Positions 2,933 through 33,677 of a DNA stretch of 38,144 bases are shown here, piece after piece; position 1 is the first letter of the stretch, and each line of letters starts with the position of its first letter. Below the pieces are notes generated by a model that was given only the letters and a program-made list of their open reading frames with translations, was not told where the DNA came from and made no database searches. Source of the stretch: Minisyncoccota bacterium (GTDB lineage: Bacteria; Patescibacteriota; Minisyncoccia; Phycocordibacterales; UBA9973); the NCBI GenBank assembly GCA_031973235.1, contig DALYDM010000004.1:1-38144 (forward strand). The letters are read 5' to 3'. The position numbers and the translations under genes are program-made.

Positions 2933-4264
2933 ATGAATAAAAAAATACTTACAATAATAATAGTAGTTTCTCTTCTGTCATTTGTTGGTGGAATTGGAGT
3001 TCTGTTGTTTAACAGAACAAACACTGCGGACAACACAGGAACTACTTCTGAAAATAATGGACTAACATTTCGAGATTTCTTCACATTTGGCGGATCAAAA
3101 AACACTACTCCAACTCCAGACCAAAATGAAGACACCCCTACACCTATCGATGACACCCCAGTTACTCCAAGTGAAATTCCAAAACTTCGCCAAGTATCTT
3201 ATGAACCAACTACAGGATTTGGAACACTTACAATCGAAAGAGAGATGGTAGAACCAGAGCCTTTAACAGCTTTAACAGAAAGTCCTACATCTGAATCAAA
3301 ATCTGCAACCACAGCAAATGCAAAAAAGGTTGAAAAAATTGACTCAGTACGATATCAAGATAGGGCAACTGGCCACATATATCAAACATTTCTCGACATA
3401 ATAAGTCCTCAAAAAATTTCAAACACCACTATTCCAAAAGTACATCACTCATATTTTGTCAGCAACAGCGAAGGATTAATTGACCAATATCTCACAACTT
3501 CACGTTCAATCGAAACGTACAGCGCCCAACTCACAAAAGACAAAGAAGGAAATTATAATGGAATCGTCGGAACATTTTTACCAAAAGATATTCTAGATCT
3601 ATCAACACTGACCGATTCTACAAAAATATTTTATATTTCTACTTTAGAAAACGGTGTTGTAGGGACTATTTCATCACCAAAAGGTGATTCAAAAATCCAA
3701 GTTTTCTCATCAAAATTTTCTGAGTGGAACTCACAATTTCCAAACAGTAAGCTTGTCACCGTCACAACAAAACCTTCTGCACGATCATTAGGATACATGT
3801 ACGGAATAGACACTTCAATAAAATCTTTCGATAAAATATTGGGTGGAATTTCTGGTCTTACAACACTTACGAGTCCAGACGGAAAACAAATTCTCTACAG
3901 TGCAACAACAACCGGAGGGTTCACTTCAAGTATATACAGCCGAGAAACAAAGAGTGCATTAACCCTTGGACTAGTTACTTTCCCTGAAAAATGCGTCTGG
4001 GCACGTGACTCAAAAACAGCATATTGTGCAGTACCACAATCAATCCCAACAGGTGAATATCCTGATAGTTGGTATCAGGGCACAGTATCATTCAATGATT
4101 CATTTTGGAAACTCGACACAGAATCAAATATATTTGAGCTTATCTATGATTCGGCATCAGAAGGAAGAAATTTTGATGGTGTTCAGTTAAAACTTTCGAC
4201 AAATGAAAAATATCTATTGTTTGTAAATAAAGTAGATAATCAACTTTGGAGTATTACTTTATAA
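2933..4264 (+). CDS. Membrane-anchored hypothetical protein with a probable TolB-like beta-propeller
   Basis: N-terminal TM helix and P/T-rich linker, then repeated blades (SPDGKQILYS, CVWARDSKTAYC, LSTNEKYLLF). Confidence 0.7.
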   Translation: MNKKILTIIIVVSLLSFVGGIGVLLFNRTNTADNTGTTSENNGLTFRDFFTFGGSKNTTPTPDQNEDTPTPIDDTPVTPSEIPKLRQVSYEPTTGFGTLTIEREMVEPEPLTALTESPTSESKSATTANAKKVEKIDSVRYQDRATGHIYQTFLDIISPQKISNTTIPKVHHSYFVSNSEGLIDQYLTTSRSIETYSAQLTKDKEGNYNGIVGTFLPKDILDLSTLTDSTKIFYISTLENGVVGTISSPKGDSKIQVFSSKFSEWNSQFPNSKLVTVTTKPSARSLGYMYGIDTSIKSFDKILGGISGLTTLTSPDGKQILYSATTTGGFTSSIYSRETKSALTLGLVTFPEKCVWARDSKTAYCAVPQSIPTGEYPDSWYQGTVSFNDSFWKLDTESNIFELIYDSASEGRNFDGVQLKLSTNEKYLLFVNKVDNQLWSITL

Positions 4265-29076: not shown

Positions 29077-29778
29077 ATGATACAGTATCAAATACGTAAT
29101 AAAACTATGATCAAAGAGGAAAATAAAGCAAAAAGTTACATGACAAAAAGTGCTTCTTTGGGACTTGGGTTCTTGGTTTTTTTGTCTTTAAGTCAGATGT
29201 ATCACTTTGTACACGAATCAAATTTTAGTCTGGAGTCAATAATCCTAGGATTGTCTGTGCTGATATTTTCTGTGGGTGTCGGACGAATTCTCGCGAAACA
29301 TCTTTCTGTGTGTACACACGAACACACAGATGATGTTGATATTACATTTATTCTGTTACTAGTGATCGGGTCTCTTATTCACACCATCTTTGATGGATCG
29401 GTGATCCACGAATCTTTTTCTAGTGGTGTAGCTGAAGGAGTTGGTGTGCTCGCAGCAATTTTATTTCATGAGATTGTTCGAACGAGCATTTTGTACCGTA
29501 TTATACGATTGATGGGATTCAAAAAATCTCTTGCACTTCTCTCTGTGTTCGGTGTTTCATTTCTCGGTGTTGCCGGAGGATATGCATTAGGTGGATTTAT
29601 TTCACGGTTCCATGAATATGAAAGTATTGCACATCTTATATCTGGAGGAATGTTTGTCGCAGTGACAACTGATTTGTACTACTACATAAGATATCATTAT
29701 GGAAAGGTGAGGATTGTACCAGTGATGTCAGGAATGGTGATTGCGTATATTGTTGGCGGCTTGGGTGGACATGAATAG
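29077..29778 (+). CDS. ZIP-family divalent metal transporter
   Basis: Multiple TMs, HEHTDD loop, HTIFDG and FHEIVR metal motifs; divergent from the Fur gene. Confidence 0.75.
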   Translation: MIQYQIRNKTMIKEENKAKSYMTKSASLGLGFLVFLSLSQMYHFVHESNFSLESIILGLSVLIFSVGVGRILAKHLSVCTHEHTDDVDITFILLLVIGSLIHTIFDGSVIHESFSSGVAEGVGVLAAILFHEIVRTSILYRIIRLMGFKKSLALLSVFGVSFLGVAGGYALGGFISRFHEYESIAHLISGGMFVAVTTDLYYYIRYHYGKVRIVPVMSGMVIAYIVGGLGGHE

Positions 29779-29781
29779 TGG

Positions 29782-29810
29782 AATCCTTACAGAAATGTAA
29801 GGATTTTTTT
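29782..29810 (+). terminator. Terminator after the ZIP gene
   Basis: AATCCTTACA-GAAA-TGTAAGGATT followed by a T-run. Confidence 0.85.
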
Positions 29811-29927
29811 ATTGGTACCAATATATATTTCTTAATTAAAATATATTCTCGGAATCACCTCTCCCTTTGGTCGAGATGCTCAATAAGTGCTGGGTAGGAA
29901 TCTTTCGTTACACGAACAGCGTACCTT

Positions 29928-30028
29928 TTCGATTCCTACACACAAGCCAAACAGTTGACTTGCTCGGGCGCACAAATTAAAAAACCCCATTCAGGGTTTT
30001 TTAATTTGTGCGCCCGGTAGGAATCGAA
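29928..30028. repeat. Inverted copy of the tRNA-Lys 3' end (12+23 bp arm split by a 25-nt hairpin)
   Basis: 29928-29939 plus 29965-29987 are the reverse complement of 29994-30028. Confidence 0.85.
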
Positions 30029-30081
30029 CCTACGACCATCTCCTTAAAAGGGAGCTGCTCTACCGACTGAGCTACGGGCGC
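30009..30081 (-). tRNA. tRNA-Lys(TTT)
   Basis: GCGCCCG acceptor stem, D arm GCTC/GAGC, anticodon loop CT-TTT-AA, T arm GTAGG-TTCGATT-CCTAC; CCA not encoded. Confidence 0.96.
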
Positions 30082-30203
30082 ATATGTTTATTTAATTTTT
30101 TGTTATCTGTTGAAGCCGCTACAACTGAGTTGTGGGCACATATATTTTTACCAAAACTCGCATAAAAAATACTTTTCTGGTACATTCAAAAATAACACAT
30201 AAT

Positions 30204-30683
30204 ATGATTAAAATCAAGAAAAAGGAAATAGTGCTTATACTCGAAAATATCCGAAGTGCAGAAAACGTCGGTTCGATTTTTCGTACCGCGGATGCAGTCG
30301 GTGTGACTAAGATATACCTTGTCGGCTACACCCCAGATCCTTTGGATCGATTTGGTAAACCACAAAAAGGTGTTGTAAAAGCTTCGCTTGGTGCTGAGAA
30401 GTCGATTCCATGGGAACACTCTGTGTCAATTCTTCCACTACTAAAAAAACTTAAAAAAGATAATTTCGAAATTGTATCACTTGAACAATCACCACGCTCA
30501 GTTTTGTACACAAAATATAAAACCCAAAAATGTGCTCTTGTTGTTGGGAATGAGGTTGAAGGTGTTTCAAAAAAAACACTCTCTTGCTCTGATGTGATAA
30601 TCGAAATACCAATGAAGGGAAATAAAGAGTCGCTTAACGTATCAGTCGCAACAGGTGTAGCATTATTTCAGCTTGTTCGTTAA
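30204..30683 (+). CDS. TrmH/SpoU-family RNA 2'-O-methyltransferase
   Basis: LENIRSAENVGSIFRTADA, VGNEVEG, IPMKGNKESLNVSVA. Confidence 0.93.
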   Translation: MIKIKKKEIVLILENIRSAENVGSIFRTADAVGVTKIYLVGYTPDPLDRFGKPQKGVVKASLGAEKSIPWEHSVSILPLLKKLKKDNFEIVSLEQSPRSVLYTKYKTQKCALVVGNEVEGVSKKTLSCSDVIIEIPMKGNKESLNVSVATGVALFQLVR

Positions 30684-33305: not shown

Positions 33306-33572
33306 ATGTCACATTTACTGGAATTTTATGGAGAAGAGTGTCCGCATTGTGTTCGAATGAAAGAATTGGTTACAAAACTCGAAAATGAAGAAGGGGTCAA
33401 AGTAGAGAGTTTTGAGGTGTGGCACAACGAAGAAAATCTCAAGAAACAAGAAGAGTACGATAAAGATTTGTGTGGAGGCGTTCCTTTCTTTTTCAATACT
33501 GAAACAAAAAAGTTTGTGTGCGGTGAAGCAGATTATGATGAATTGAAGAAGTGGGCGAAGGGGGAGGAATAA
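33306..33572 (+). CDS. Small cytoplasmic thioredoxin/glutaredoxin-like protein
   Basis: FYGEECPHC and CGGVPFF. Confidence 0.88.
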   Translation: MSHLLEFYGEECPHCVRMKELVTKLENEEGVKVESFEVWHNEENLKKQEEYDKDLCGGVPFFFNTETKKFVCGEADYDELKKWAKGEE

Positions 33573-33603
33573 TAAAAAGCACCAAGAGGTGCTTTTTATT
33601 ATT
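33568..33603. terminator. Bidirectional terminator
   Basis: AATAATAAAAAGCACC-AAGA-GGTGCTTTTTATTATT. Confidence 0.85.
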
Positions 33604-33677
33604 GGTGATCTCGGCGGGAATCGAACCTGCATTTCTCCCTTCGCAGGGGAGTGTCCTATCCGTTGAACGACGAGATC
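33603..33677 (-). tRNA. tRNA-Arg(GCG)
   Basis: GATCTCG/CGAGATC acceptor stem, CTCCC-CT-GCG-AA-GGGAG anticodon arm, TTCGATT T-loop, encoded CCA. Confidence 0.93.

Follow-up and report, generated by a model that had tools for sequence, protein, structure and literature searches.

Patescibacteria (Candidate Phyla Radiation, CPR) are bacteria with tiny genomes, and to our knowledge their RNA biology is almost unexplored. The stretch of Minisyncoccota DNA analyzed here (38,144 nt; hereafter the window) contains a tRNA-Lys gene that is followed by an inverted copy of its own 3' end. This arrangement raises the question of what a spacer does when it is complementary to the tRNA in front of it. A sequence-only reading of the locus had proposed that a read-through transcript switches between a folded tRNA and a form with the acceptor and T arms sequestered, or alternatively that the copy, derived from the tRNA end, marks a site or scar of recombination. 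tRNA 3' external transcribed spacers can act as RNAs, as exemplified by 3'ETS-leuZ of E. coli, and the leader-trailer processing helices of rRNA and tRNA operons are cut by RNase III. The att sites of tyrosine integrases target tRNA genes, and Xer-dependent elements and integron cassettes use folded hairpin sites. Leader-trailer helices are the subject of PMC10250234, and guide-directed tRNase Z cleavage is treated in PMC2691602. Here, we describe the architecture of the locus and its relatives in other Patescibacteria, and weigh the explanations that may account for them.

The discriminator A73 of the tRNA-Lys lies at position 30009, and CCA is not encoded. The split reverse complement described in the sequence-only reading was reproduced by a repeat search, which returned two perfect inverted repeats, one of 23 nt (29965-29987 against 29994-30016, separated by a 6-nt loop) and one of 12 nt (29928-29939 against 30017-30028). 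The two combine into a 35-nt complement of tRNA nt 54-73 and 15 trailer nt, split by 25 nt (29940-29964). By arithmetic, about 5e-8 perfect 23-nt inverted repeats within 100 nt are expected per 38 kb; since this expectation is so low and the same arrangement recurs in relatives, chance is excluded. The recurrence in other Patescibacteria also disposes of the concern that the arrangement might be unique to this locus. An assembly chimera at the tRNA-Lys trailer, which had been named as another trivial explanation, is unlikely: positions 29779-30035 of the window are matched at 100% by three independent Logan assemblies from different runs, which give an identical sequence. All three assemblies end inside the tRNA, at 30035-30037, and we infer that this is the usual graph break at a tRNA common to several populations.

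Judged from the comparison with related loci, the inverted copy is the 5' half of a conserved structured element of approximately 80-165 nt, which occupies the 3' trailers of single tRNA genes and is designated family C (Table 1). The 25 nt that split the copy had been regarded as an insert. Instead, their core is hp1, a conserved, covarying hairpin of a defined element, folded as GCAAGUCAA-CUGU-UUGGCUUGU; the 9-bp stem proposed earlier was found in this fold, with two G.U pairs that are valid on the tRNA strand only. The anti-T-arm segment had been proposed to pair with 29894-29902. The required copy is present there, and the pairing corresponds to the closing helix of the element, P2 (GUAGGAAUC/GAUUCCUAC), whose 5' strand is formed by the first 9 nt of the anti-T-arm segment (29931-29939) and is complementary to the T loop and the 3' strand of the T stem of the tRNA. 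The 3' strand GAUUCCUAC lies in addition within a 10-nt direct repeat of tRNA nt 57-66, and the acceptor-like continuation behind it (CCAGCAC) is decayed in the window. In the family C anatomy, P2 encloses a variable hairpin, hp2, and the hairpin hp3. hp2, which lies between P2 and hp3, is missing in the window, where 43 model positions are deleted; as the length of hp2 varies greatly across the family, the window copy is treated as a reduced family C member on the basis of the alignment.

Table 1. Coordinates of the features in and around the tRNA-Lys spacer of the window.
Feature	Position	Strand	Source
tRNA-Lys(UUU) gene	30009-30081	-	ARAGORN; Rfam tRNA model, 74.1 bits
H0 5' arm: tRNA nt 66-73 (30009-30016, acceptor 3' strand and discriminator) and first 15 trailer nt	29994-30016	-	23-nt inverted repeat
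H0 loop, UGAAUG	29988-29993	-	sequence, repeat search
H0 3' arm, with the anti-acceptor segment (element positions 1-7) as its last 7 nt (29965-29971, GCGCCCG)	29965-29987	-	inverted repeat, R1 alignment
Whole element (family C), 79 nt, without variable hairpin hp2	29893-29971	-	covariance model R1
hp1: 9-bp hairpin with CUGU loop, core of the 25-nt stretch	29942-29963	-	folding, family covariation
Anti-T-arm segment GUAGGAAUCGAA, complement of tRNA nt 54-65	29928-29939	-	inverted repeats
hp3: 5-bp hairpin UUCGU-GUA-ACGAA, conserved GUA loop	29904-29916	-	RNAfold, R1 alignment
P2 3' strand GAUUCCUAC, direct copy of tRNA nt 57-65	29894-29902	-	repeat search, folding
Remnant common to the closest relatives L103 and L075 (...GAGCAUCUCGAC...GGAGAGGYGAUUCC)	29850-29884	-	locus comparison
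Terminator hairpin of the convergent 233-aa membrane-protein gene	29780-29807	+	terminator scan
Convergent 233-aa membrane-protein gene	29077-29778		ORF list, Pfam

The covariance model R1 was built from eight related Patescibacterial loci, with the window left out. The window was matched over the full length of the model (positions 1-123) with 78.8 bits (E = 1.9e-19). As in the rest of the family, the window element lies on the same strand as the tRNA and directly behind it, comes after a hairpin whose long stem, H0, extends into the acceptor 3' strand (here 23 bp and perfect, pairing 8 tRNA nt), and contains the helices hp1, P2, and hp3 with its GUA loop. The trailer sequence differs between genomes, and the 3' arm of H0 compensates every time; among 11 family members, 144 of 154 H0 base-pair positions are Watson-Crick pairs and 2 are G.U pairs. 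hp1 occurs with eight different stem sequences in the 11 members, all of them paired (85 Watson-Crick pairs and 1 G.U pair at 86 positions). Changes on both sides were found at 6 of the 9 pairs of helix 1 and at 4 of the 5 pairs of helix 4 (hp3). P2 has an invariant 5' strand, and its 3' strand drifts via G.U pairs (4 G.U, 0 A.C). Over the whole family, 95% of base-pair positions are paired, compared with 40-49% in slid controls, and 13 pairs have changes on both sides. This covariation was reached by 0 of 500 shuffles on four of five measures and by 1 of 500 on the fifth. The pairings proposed from the window are conserved across relatives and maintained by compensatory change. Between the window and its relative L103, the element is 94% identical and the flanking coding sequences are 78-81% identical. 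Of 19 metagenome pattern matches, 13 were chance matches in unrelated, mostly coding DNA, and one more (L126) was the antisense of a real tRNA.

The strand of the fold was assessed from its G.U pairs. The trailer hairpins hold 37 G.U pairs on the sense strand against 16 on the antisense strand, the sense strand is the more stable one in 23 of 32 hairpins (antisense in 8), and a G.U pair is invariant in 10/10 sequences of a related family, A. This asymmetry favors the tRNA strand as the folding strand. By this comparative evidence, the tRNA strand is the one that carries the element, whether folded as RNA or as single-stranded DNA; the asymmetry, as G.U or G.T, would also arise from a single-stranded DNA fold of the same strand. 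The near-perfect Watson-Crick pairing of H0 (144 Watson-Crick, 2 G.U) also fits maintenance of a palindrome at the DNA level.

A family C element is also present behind tRNA-Arg(GCG) and tRNA-Leu(UAG) in other Patescibacteria, and all family C copies found sit behind tRNAs. When the element is behind these genes, its anti-acceptor and anti-T-arm segments switch to match tRNA-Arg or tRNA-Leu. The anti-T-arm segment is GCAGGAAUCGAA behind tRNA-Arg and GAGGACUU behind tRNA-Leu; the anti-acceptor segment matches the cognate acceptor in Lys and Arg copies, and partly in Leu copies. Six distinct tRNA 3' ends are covered, with 0-3 cognate mismatches in the 7 nt of the anti-acceptor segment and 0-2 in the 12 nt of the anti-T-arm segment. 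tRNA-Arg species with a G2.U71 pair distinguish a complement of the tRNA 3' strand (GAU) from a copy of its 5' strand (GGU): the complement was found in family A loci L094 and L013 and in family C locus L036, the family C copies L061 and L077 being uninformative for this comparison. Decay has usually affected the acceptor-like 3' strand of the element itself, and the 5' heptamer is kept, which points to the real tRNA as the partner of the heptamer. Hairpins that reach at least 4 nt into the acceptor occur at approximately 16 of about 55 Patescibacterial tRNA-Lys genes and at 0 of about 58 tRNAs of other types and phyla with the same 25-nt 3' end. The search for reverse-complement matches behind the tRNAs of relatives, which had been suggested as a check, was extended to all tRNAs in the compiled loci, and an exact 9-mer test gave 11/85 versus 0/101. 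Judged from these alignments, what is conserved is pairing to the tRNA 3' end. The element is dispensable, since it is present at only about one quarter of Patescibacterial tRNA-Lys genes.

The alternative between a folded tRNA and a sequestered 3' half, as put forward in the sequence-only reading, stands insofar as it is built into the sequence, with compensated pairings and favorable energetics. In nearest-neighbor calculations, the predicted minimum-energy fold sequesters the acceptor 3' strand and the T arm in 8/8 read-through precursors (the window and seven relatives), at 10-20 kcal/mol below any fold that keeps the acceptor and T stems of the tRNA; these calculations leave out the tertiary structure and modification of the tRNA as well as the order of co-transcriptional folding. 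The structure, its conservation, the tRNA-strand location, the cognate matching, and the predicted energetics were all read from sequence comparison and folding; transcription through the first hairpin, the enzymes, and the physiological role are what we infer from them. With a confidence that comes close to even, we propose that the element is a cis-acting, tRNA-matched trailer RNA that would serve as a processing or maturation lock. In this model, the element would be co-transcribed with the tRNA by read-through past the first hairpin, and its middle segment would pair with either the real tRNA 3' end or the downstream copy, giving two mutually exclusive folds. In one fold, the tRNA would be intact and the element closed by P2; in the other, the acceptor 3' strand and the T arm would be locked in a duplex of about 35 bp. 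The long duplex might serve processing as an RNase III-type stem, or it might lock the 3' end. As a result, the tRNA would be separated from a downstream structured RNA, or a read-through tRNA would be withheld from maturation. A point against such a lock is that the first hairpin is terminator-like in many copies; if it terminates efficiently, the element would rarely be transcribed. The dispensability of the element also speaks against it.

Known RNA systems resemble the element in part. Like 3'ETS RNAs and leader-trailer helices, it would be a structured RNA from the spacer behind a tRNA, and its duplex could be a processing stem. The difference is that the tRNA itself supplies one arm of the duplex, through its acceptor 3' strand and T arm, and duplex formation thereby unfolds the tRNA; moreover, the element carries a decoy copy of this stretch and is re-matched to each tRNA that it follows, and a processing or sponge role is putative, by analogy with these RNAs. 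Attenuators and riboswitches share the logic of 1:2 versus 2:3 pairing, here among the tRNA 3' end, its complement, and the downstream copy, with the middle segment pairing either way. However, the sequestered segment belongs to a mature tRNA rather than to a terminator or ribosome-binding site, and no ligand, ribosome, or tRNA-sensing input is evident for the element. Four copies (L133, L077, L074, and L083) resemble tRNA-like RNAs (mascRNA-type, YrlA, and minihelices for RNase Z and RNase P) in that they keep their own acceptor 3' strand: an acceptor-like stem can form on top of an extended T-stem-like helix and is followed by a discriminator A and a terminator, as in a tRNA gene. Most copies, including that of the window, have lost the acceptor 3' strand, and the element lacks a T loop, a D arm, and an anticodon arm. 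The element gave no match to tRNA, tmRNA, or Y RNA models. At the gathering threshold of Rfam 15, only the tRNA passed in the window and 18 related loci; at E values up to 10, only noise was returned, namely miRNA-like hairpins and tmRNA_permuted with 15 bits against a threshold of 47. A full-text literature search found no description of such tRNA-matched trailer elements, and the element is apparently undescribed.

The proposed lock has to be weighed against a reading in which the element is a small, recombinase-less unit that multiplies through duplication or mobility and targets tRNA 3' ends, like a cassette or a miniature integrative element. We regard such a unit as a serious competitor, although less likely than the lock. 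Each unit would hold a copy of a tRNA 3' end and a nearby inverted copy, and the hairpin folded from them, as single-stranded DNA or RNA, would mimic the acceptor/T-stem helix of its target. Inserted by a host-encoded or unlinked enzyme, the unit would duplicate the tRNA 3' end and restore a target at its own 3' end, leading to arrays, and the conserved hairpins would serve propagation of the element rather than the tRNA. In keeping with this, units are flanked by direct repeats of the tRNA 3' end (34 nt in L083, 19 nt in L074, at least 17 nt in L077, and 10 nt in the window), L129, L106, and L094 have tandem arrays, some 8-kb loci contain several copies, and homologous cores lie behind three different tRNA species. 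The element is present in the window and L103 and absent from L075. L103 resembles an L075-type locus plus one inserted unit, with the old trailer still recognizable downstream, and in it a 16-nt direct repeat encloses about 50 nt containing a family A 3' end and a tRNA trailer copy. The relative orientation of tRNA-Lys and its SpoU neighbor is not the same in all lineages, which shows that the spot rearranges (an exact-protein search with the SpoU gene product gave no match), and a related family A copy lies behind a protein gene in L072. Arrays, direct repeats, presence/absence, and the L072 copy are not needed by cis-regulation and look like duplicative spread. The repeats, arrays, and presence/absence pattern, together with the inverted target copy near one end and the lack of an own recombinase gene (as in Xer-exploiting elements and cassettes), are shared with integrative elements and cassettes. 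By contrast, the DNA bounded by the tRNA 3'-end direct repeats is only 80-190 nt, has no coding capacity, and has no integrase nearby. The inspection of orthologous loci for integrases, proposed earlier as a check, was carried out with Pfam on flanking ORFs of the window (about 8 kb on each side), L083, and L133; only housekeeping genes were found, and no recombinase, integrase, or transposase. No copies were found in viral contigs: seed scans with families A and C gave only chance matches, which nhmmer and the covariance model rejected, and a phage or attP link was dropped when the single viral contig with the tRNA 3' 20-mer proved to carry a tRNA cluster with an ordinary phage tRNA-Leu. At 10-34 nt, the direct repeats far exceed the target duplications of transposases. 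P2 could be read as MITE-like terminal repeats of 9-10 bp, but these are tRNA-derived and change with the tRNA. An intact T arm is expected at the attR site of a tyrosine integrase and none is seen at the distal junction, and the target is a tRNA end rather than dif or attI. In addition, the internal hairpins and loops (the GUA triloop, the GAAAR junction, and the invariant G.U of family A) are conserved as in a functional RNA, and a switch of the target tRNA requires a coordinated change of sense and antisense segments. The earlier idea of a recombination site or scar from the tRNA end draws real support from the repeats, the arrays, and the presence/absence pattern among close relatives, and no integrase was found at the loci examined. 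A primer-binding site of a tRNA-primed retroelement was rejected: the window complement follows the genomic trailer (CAA) and not CCA. TGG, the complement of CCA, was seen in L075 only, and no RT domain was found with Pfam in the flanking ORFs.

Two further readings treat the locus as an accident of decay or of termination. According to one, which we consider very improbable, the locus is a decayed inverted tRNA-Lys duplicate, that is, a convergent plus-strand pseudo-tRNA that arose by fold-back or template switching at a terminator palindrome and was later split by insertions of 25 nt and about 29 nt. Indeed, plus-strand positions 29861-29987 run colinear with tRNA-Lys nt 27-73 and 14 trailer nt, the inverted copy of the tRNA 3' end continues for 22 nt without interruption in L075 and L103, and the copy in L103 includes 15 nt of the L075-type trailer, which indicates inverted duplication at the DNA level. 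However, the supposed inserts are conserved hairpins with compensatory changes and with G.U pairs valid on the tRNA strand only, and the same architecture and core lie behind tRNA-Arg and tRNA-Leu, which three independent decays cannot explain. The plus strand has no Rfam tRNA match, and ARAGORN called no plus-strand tRNA or tmRNA in the window or 21 relatives; a tmRNA or convergent tRNA was also dismissed on the acceptor, which is without G3.U70. For 29893-29971, the pseudo-tRNA reading is largely refuted by the conserved hairpins and comparative data, and it is possible only as the origin of the remnant at 29850-29884. The other reading, which is hardly credible, is that of a bidirectional intrinsic terminator of unusual length, with a stem that extends into the tRNA by accident, followed by an unrelated spacer. 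It draws on the terminator-like inner A6CCC-loop-GGGU6, on the 15-bp terminator extended by A/U runs behind the window's tRNA-Arg, and on the convergent gene on the other side. The H0 loop, CCC/GGG pairs, and A and U runs look like a weak terminator, although the terminator scan did not call it; the full 23-bp H0 stem is followed by AGCAAG rather than U, and the inner CCC/GGG stem with U6 fits a terminator loosely. Against it, the convergent gene has its own terminator, in several members the stem is long and perfect and its G+C-rich part is not followed by a U-tract (e.g., L135, 29 bp), the stem extension is specific to these tRNAs, and a conserved structured element comes next. A plain long terminator is contradicted by these comparative data.

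Tentatively, and well short of even confidence, we suggest a new class of tRNA-matched elements, the core of which carries an antisense and a sense copy of the cognate tRNA 3' end. Its members would be either RNA locks on read-through precursors, i.e., a cis-acting maturation checkpoint with no described bacterial counterpart, or tiny recombinase-less elements that home to tRNA 3' ends via a folded acceptor/T-stem mimic. If the element acts as an RNA, it would couple tRNA 3' maturation or quality control to a trailer able to unfold the tRNA itself, and it would bring to light two or more structured RNA families (C and its relative A) that are absent from Rfam. If it is mobile, it would be an unusually small element that recognizes tRNA ends through matched sense and antisense copies, and it would bear on tRNA genes as rearrangement hot spots, including the flipped tRNA-Lys orientation between lineages. 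Under either reading, the matching to the cognate tRNA makes the role directly testable.

Downstream of the element, the remnant at 29850-29884, which L103 and L075 also have, probably stems from a second and older tRNA-end-derived element, of which the window keeps the 3' part and has lost the 5' part. The likeness of 29861-29881 to a tRNA anticodon arm, which is all that still speaks for the pseudo-tRNA reading, is weak (10-36 of 500 shuffles equal the score). The remnant contains the CAUCUC/GAGGUG hairpin described earlier; it exists in the window and is not conserved, as its pairing is lost in the two closest relatives (GAGGCG). On its far side, the 200-nt spacer with the element ends at the terminator of the convergent membrane-protein gene.

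Two tRNA genes were called in the window (Table), and two perfect inverted repeats were recovered at lower coordinates than tRNA-Lys, that is, downstream of it, where they jointly complement tRNA nt 54-73 and 15 trailer nt. The sequence-only reading had described a split perfect complement of the tRNA-Lys 3' end and its trailer, and this was reproduced as 23-nt and 12-nt inverted repeats. The 25 nt between the pieces also formed the 9-bp hairpin described there, with two G.U pairs existing on the tRNA strand only, and the proposed alternative partner, GAUUCCUAC, was found at 29894-29902 as a direct repeat of tRNA-Lys nt 57-65. The same reading had raised an assembly chimera, which is unlikely because over 29779-30035 the window is matched exactly by three Logan assemblies, each from a different run. 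Logan contigs L001-L003 all end inside tRNA-Lys at 30035-30037, within 3 nt of one another; this shared end is probably a graph break or branching at a tRNA common to several populations.

The 25-nt 3' end of tRNA-Lys was scanned against species-representative genomes, yielding 119 stretches from many phyla; the MAG labels of loci with the same tRNA 3' end were Paceibacterota, Saccharibacteria or Nomurabacteria. Such loci and the flanking genes together place the source of the window within the Patescibacteria. A trailer hairpin with a stem that takes in 4 nt or more of the acceptor 3' strand was present at about 16 of about 55 Patescibacterial tRNA-Lys genes; it was absent from all of the roughly 58 tRNAs that have an identical 3' end but belong to other types and phyla. 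The trailers vary among loci (CAAAU, CAAG, CCAG, CCAAG, CAGC, CACUUAU), and the 3' arm compensates every time. Nor is the arrangement unique, a possibility noted in the sequence-only reading: the full pattern (this hairpin, GCGCCCG-AG, a 7-9 bp hairpin and then GUGUAGGAAUCGAA) occurred in six genome loci, and a metagenome scan with it added five true members. Because the metagenome pattern demanded Lys-type segments, these five are not independent evidence of segment conservation; such evidence comes from the members found in genomes and from the copies behind tRNA-Arg and tRNA-Leu. In a metagenome contig of another lineage (L126:4800-5060), an opposite-strand tRNA is preceded by a duplicated 3'-end copy interrupted by about 70 nt, which may be a further variant of the tRNA-end theme.

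Aligned on the tRNA strand, the members (family C) share an anti-acceptor heptamer, the hairpin hp1, the helix P2 (GUAGGAAUC / GAU(A)UCCUAC), a long variable hairpin hp2, and hp3, a 5-bp hairpin with a GUA loop. In eight sequences, window excluded, 95% of base-pair positions were paired and 13 pairs were changed on both sides. The observed values were reached by 0/500 shuffles on four of five measures and by 1/500 on the fifth, and slid controls gave only 40-49% pairing. The hp1 stems were of eight unrelated sequences, one closed by a UUCG loop. A covariance model of these eight sequences, built without the window, matched window 29893-29971(-) at 78.8 bits (E = 2e-19), with hp2 (43 model positions) entirely deleted. 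Therefore, what had been read as a 25-nt insert is hp1, a defining hairpin, rather than an insertion, and the 12-nt piece provides P2 with its 5' strand. A partial match to the hp2/hp3 region at window 4164-4231 (+), which is A+T-rich, is most likely noise (9.6 bits, E = 0.77).

Drift in P2 was confined to the 3' strand (four G.U, no A.C). Trailer hairpins held 37 G.U pairs in sense vs 16 in antisense, and of 32 the sense strand was the more stable in 23 vs the antisense in 8. The G.U pairs point to the tRNA strand as that to which the element belongs.

The key result is that the flanks of the family C element are matched to the tRNA it follows. A covariance model search of 57 Patescibacterial loci located further copies behind tRNA-Arg(GCG) in L061, L036, L010 and L077, with a tandem pair in L129, and behind tRNA-Leu(UAG) in L074. 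The tRNA-related segments of each of these copies fit its upstream tRNA, not tRNA-Lys (Table). On its 3' side the element repeats the 3' end of the tRNA in direct orientation, for 19 nt in L074, for 17 nt or more in L077 and for 34 nt in L083, a related locus. Behind a tRNA-Arg with a G2.U71 pair, the copies carried GAU, the 3'-strand complement, not GGU, the 5'-strand copy; this was seen in family A loci L094 and L013 and in one family C copy (L036), while family C copies L061 and L077 were uninformative. In most copies decay has affected the acceptor-like 3' strand of the element itself (in the window it reads CCAGCAC), yet the 5' heptamer is kept; therefore, the conserved partner of the heptamer is the 3' strand of the real tRNA. 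Among all tRNAs in the compared loci, the signatures were confined to Patescibacteria (exact 9-mer test, 11/85 vs 0/101) and concentrated at tRNA-Lys(UUU) (11/44) and tRNA-Arg(GCG) (4/9). The tRNA-Arg(GCG) of the window (33560-33677, minus) has an encoded CCA, and the terminator behind it is an ordinary one of 15 bp, extended by A/U, without a tRNA-matched element; this tRNA species bears the element in other genomes. The tRNA-Lys of the window has no encoded CCA.

Features of the window and of related loci (L handles), with tRNA counterparts of element segments
Feature	Position or locus	Strand	Sequence	Basis or tRNA counterpart
tRNA-Lys(UUU)	30009-30081	minus		tRNA gene calls
tRNA-Arg(GCG)	33603-33677	minus		tRNA gene calls
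Perfect inverted repeat, 23 nt, 6-nt loop	29965-29987 vs 29994-30016			repeat search of window
Perfect inverted repeat, 12 nt	29928-29939 vs 30017-30028			repeat search of window
Anti-acceptor (Arg)	L010		GCUCCCG	acceptor 3' strand CGGGAGC
Anti-acceptor (Arg)	L129		GCCCCUG	acceptor 3' strand CAGGGGC
Anti-acceptor (Arg)	L036		GAUCGCG	acceptor 3' strand CGGGAUC
P2	Arg copies		GCAGGAAUCGAA / ..UCCUGCC	tRNA-Arg T loop + T-stem 3' strand
P2 (Leu)	L074		GAGGACUU / AAGUCCUC	tRNA-Leu T loop + T-stem 3' strand
Family A copies	L013:6238-6335; L013:1748-1835			
Family A copies	L067:3867-3964; L036:2361-2458; L074:983-1081			
Family A copies	L106:313-491; L094:2801-2951			
Family A copy behind protein gene (single case)	L072:3429-3520			

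In the position that family C takes, other genomes (Saccharibacteria-like MAGs) carry a second conserved structured motif, family A, which is about 100 nt long and follows tRNA-Lys(UUU/CUU) or tRNA-Arg, sometimes in tandem. Compensatory changes were found in 19 of its 28 predicted pairs, and one G.U pair was invariant in 10/10 sequences. The sequence before it is usually GUGCG, GUGCU or GUGAU, which in each case complements the 3' end of the tRNA concerned. In L124 the 5' part of family C is joined to a family A-like core, and in L083, L086 and L072 a P2-like helix encloses such a core; thus, the two families are regarded as one superfamily. Rfam 15 gave no match for family C, family A or the hybrids, and a literature search found no published description of such elements, an absence that is no proof of novelty.

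The tRNA, trailer and element of the window and seven relatives were folded. In all of them the minimum-energy structure was an invaded form, in which the anti-segments pair with the acceptor 3' strand and the T arm in a single long duplex, with hp1 as a side branch. Its energy was lower by 10-20 kcal/mol than that of the best fold keeping the acceptor and T stems (window, -86.4 vs -76.7 kcal/mol). The calculation omits tertiary structure, modifications and transcription order, and therefore shows potential, not behaviour.

The window has a G+C content of about 36% and carries housekeeping genes (PolA, a holA-like gene, YibE/F, DsbB, Fur, Fpg, RuvA and a sigma factor). A gene for a 233-aa ZIP-like membrane protein is convergent with tRNA-Lys, and a SpoU-type methyltransferase gene is divergent from it. 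The SpoU-type and Fpg genes always adjoin tRNA-Lys (window 30009-30683 vs L036, L040, L062, L082, L094, L106). In the window and in L103, L075, L107, L113 and L083 the tRNA and SpoU diverge; six other lineages have the tRNA upstream of SpoU and in tandem with it. Therefore, the tRNA gene was inverted in place at least once. The closest relatives among the loci compared were L103 (flanking proteins 75-85% identical in amino acids) and L075. Between the window and L103 the element shows 94% identity, compared with 78-81% for the flanking coding sequences.

Judged from sequence comparison, the element is best supported as a putative cis-acting RNA of the trailer, structured and matched to the tRNA that it follows. 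Its middle segment would pair with the tRNA 3' end or with the downstream copy, and through this choice of partners the resulting long duplex could be a candidate processing stem or a lock on putative read-through precursors. Its main rival, a small cassette that is duplicative or mobile and homes to tRNA 3' ends, is suggested by direct repeats of 10-34 nt, tandem arrays and the difference between lineages in how tRNA-Lys is oriented to SpoU. The element is also present in the window and L103 and absent from L075, and L103 resembles an L075-type locus with one inserted unit, the old trailer being visible downstream, inverted. However, no recombinase was found nearby, either within about 8 kb in the window or near the copies in L083 and L133; integrases at orthologous loci were a check named in the sequence-only reading. 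Viral copies were not found, the repeats exceed the length of transposase target duplications, and the loops are conserved in an RNA-like manner. A trailer RNA and a mobile cassette are mutually compatible. A plus-strand pseudo-tRNA was rejected for the element itself; at most, and on weak evidence, it may explain the remnant at 29850-29884.

In L103:5950-6230 (minus), downstream of the family C element of this locus, the 3' end of tRNA-Lys recurs as an inverted copy without interruption, joined to 15 nt of an L075-type trailer. A 16-nt direct repeat (AAGGAGAGGCGATTCC) in L103 flanks a piece of about 50 nt, in which the 3' end of a family A motif and a copy of today's tRNA trailer are found; the region consists of layered rearrangements at one spot. 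In L075:6150-6226, TGG precedes the inverted tRNA-Lys 3'-end copy, which is therefore complementary to a mature CCA-tailed tRNA (25 nt); the gene itself continues with CAG, and the 3-nt match may be chance.
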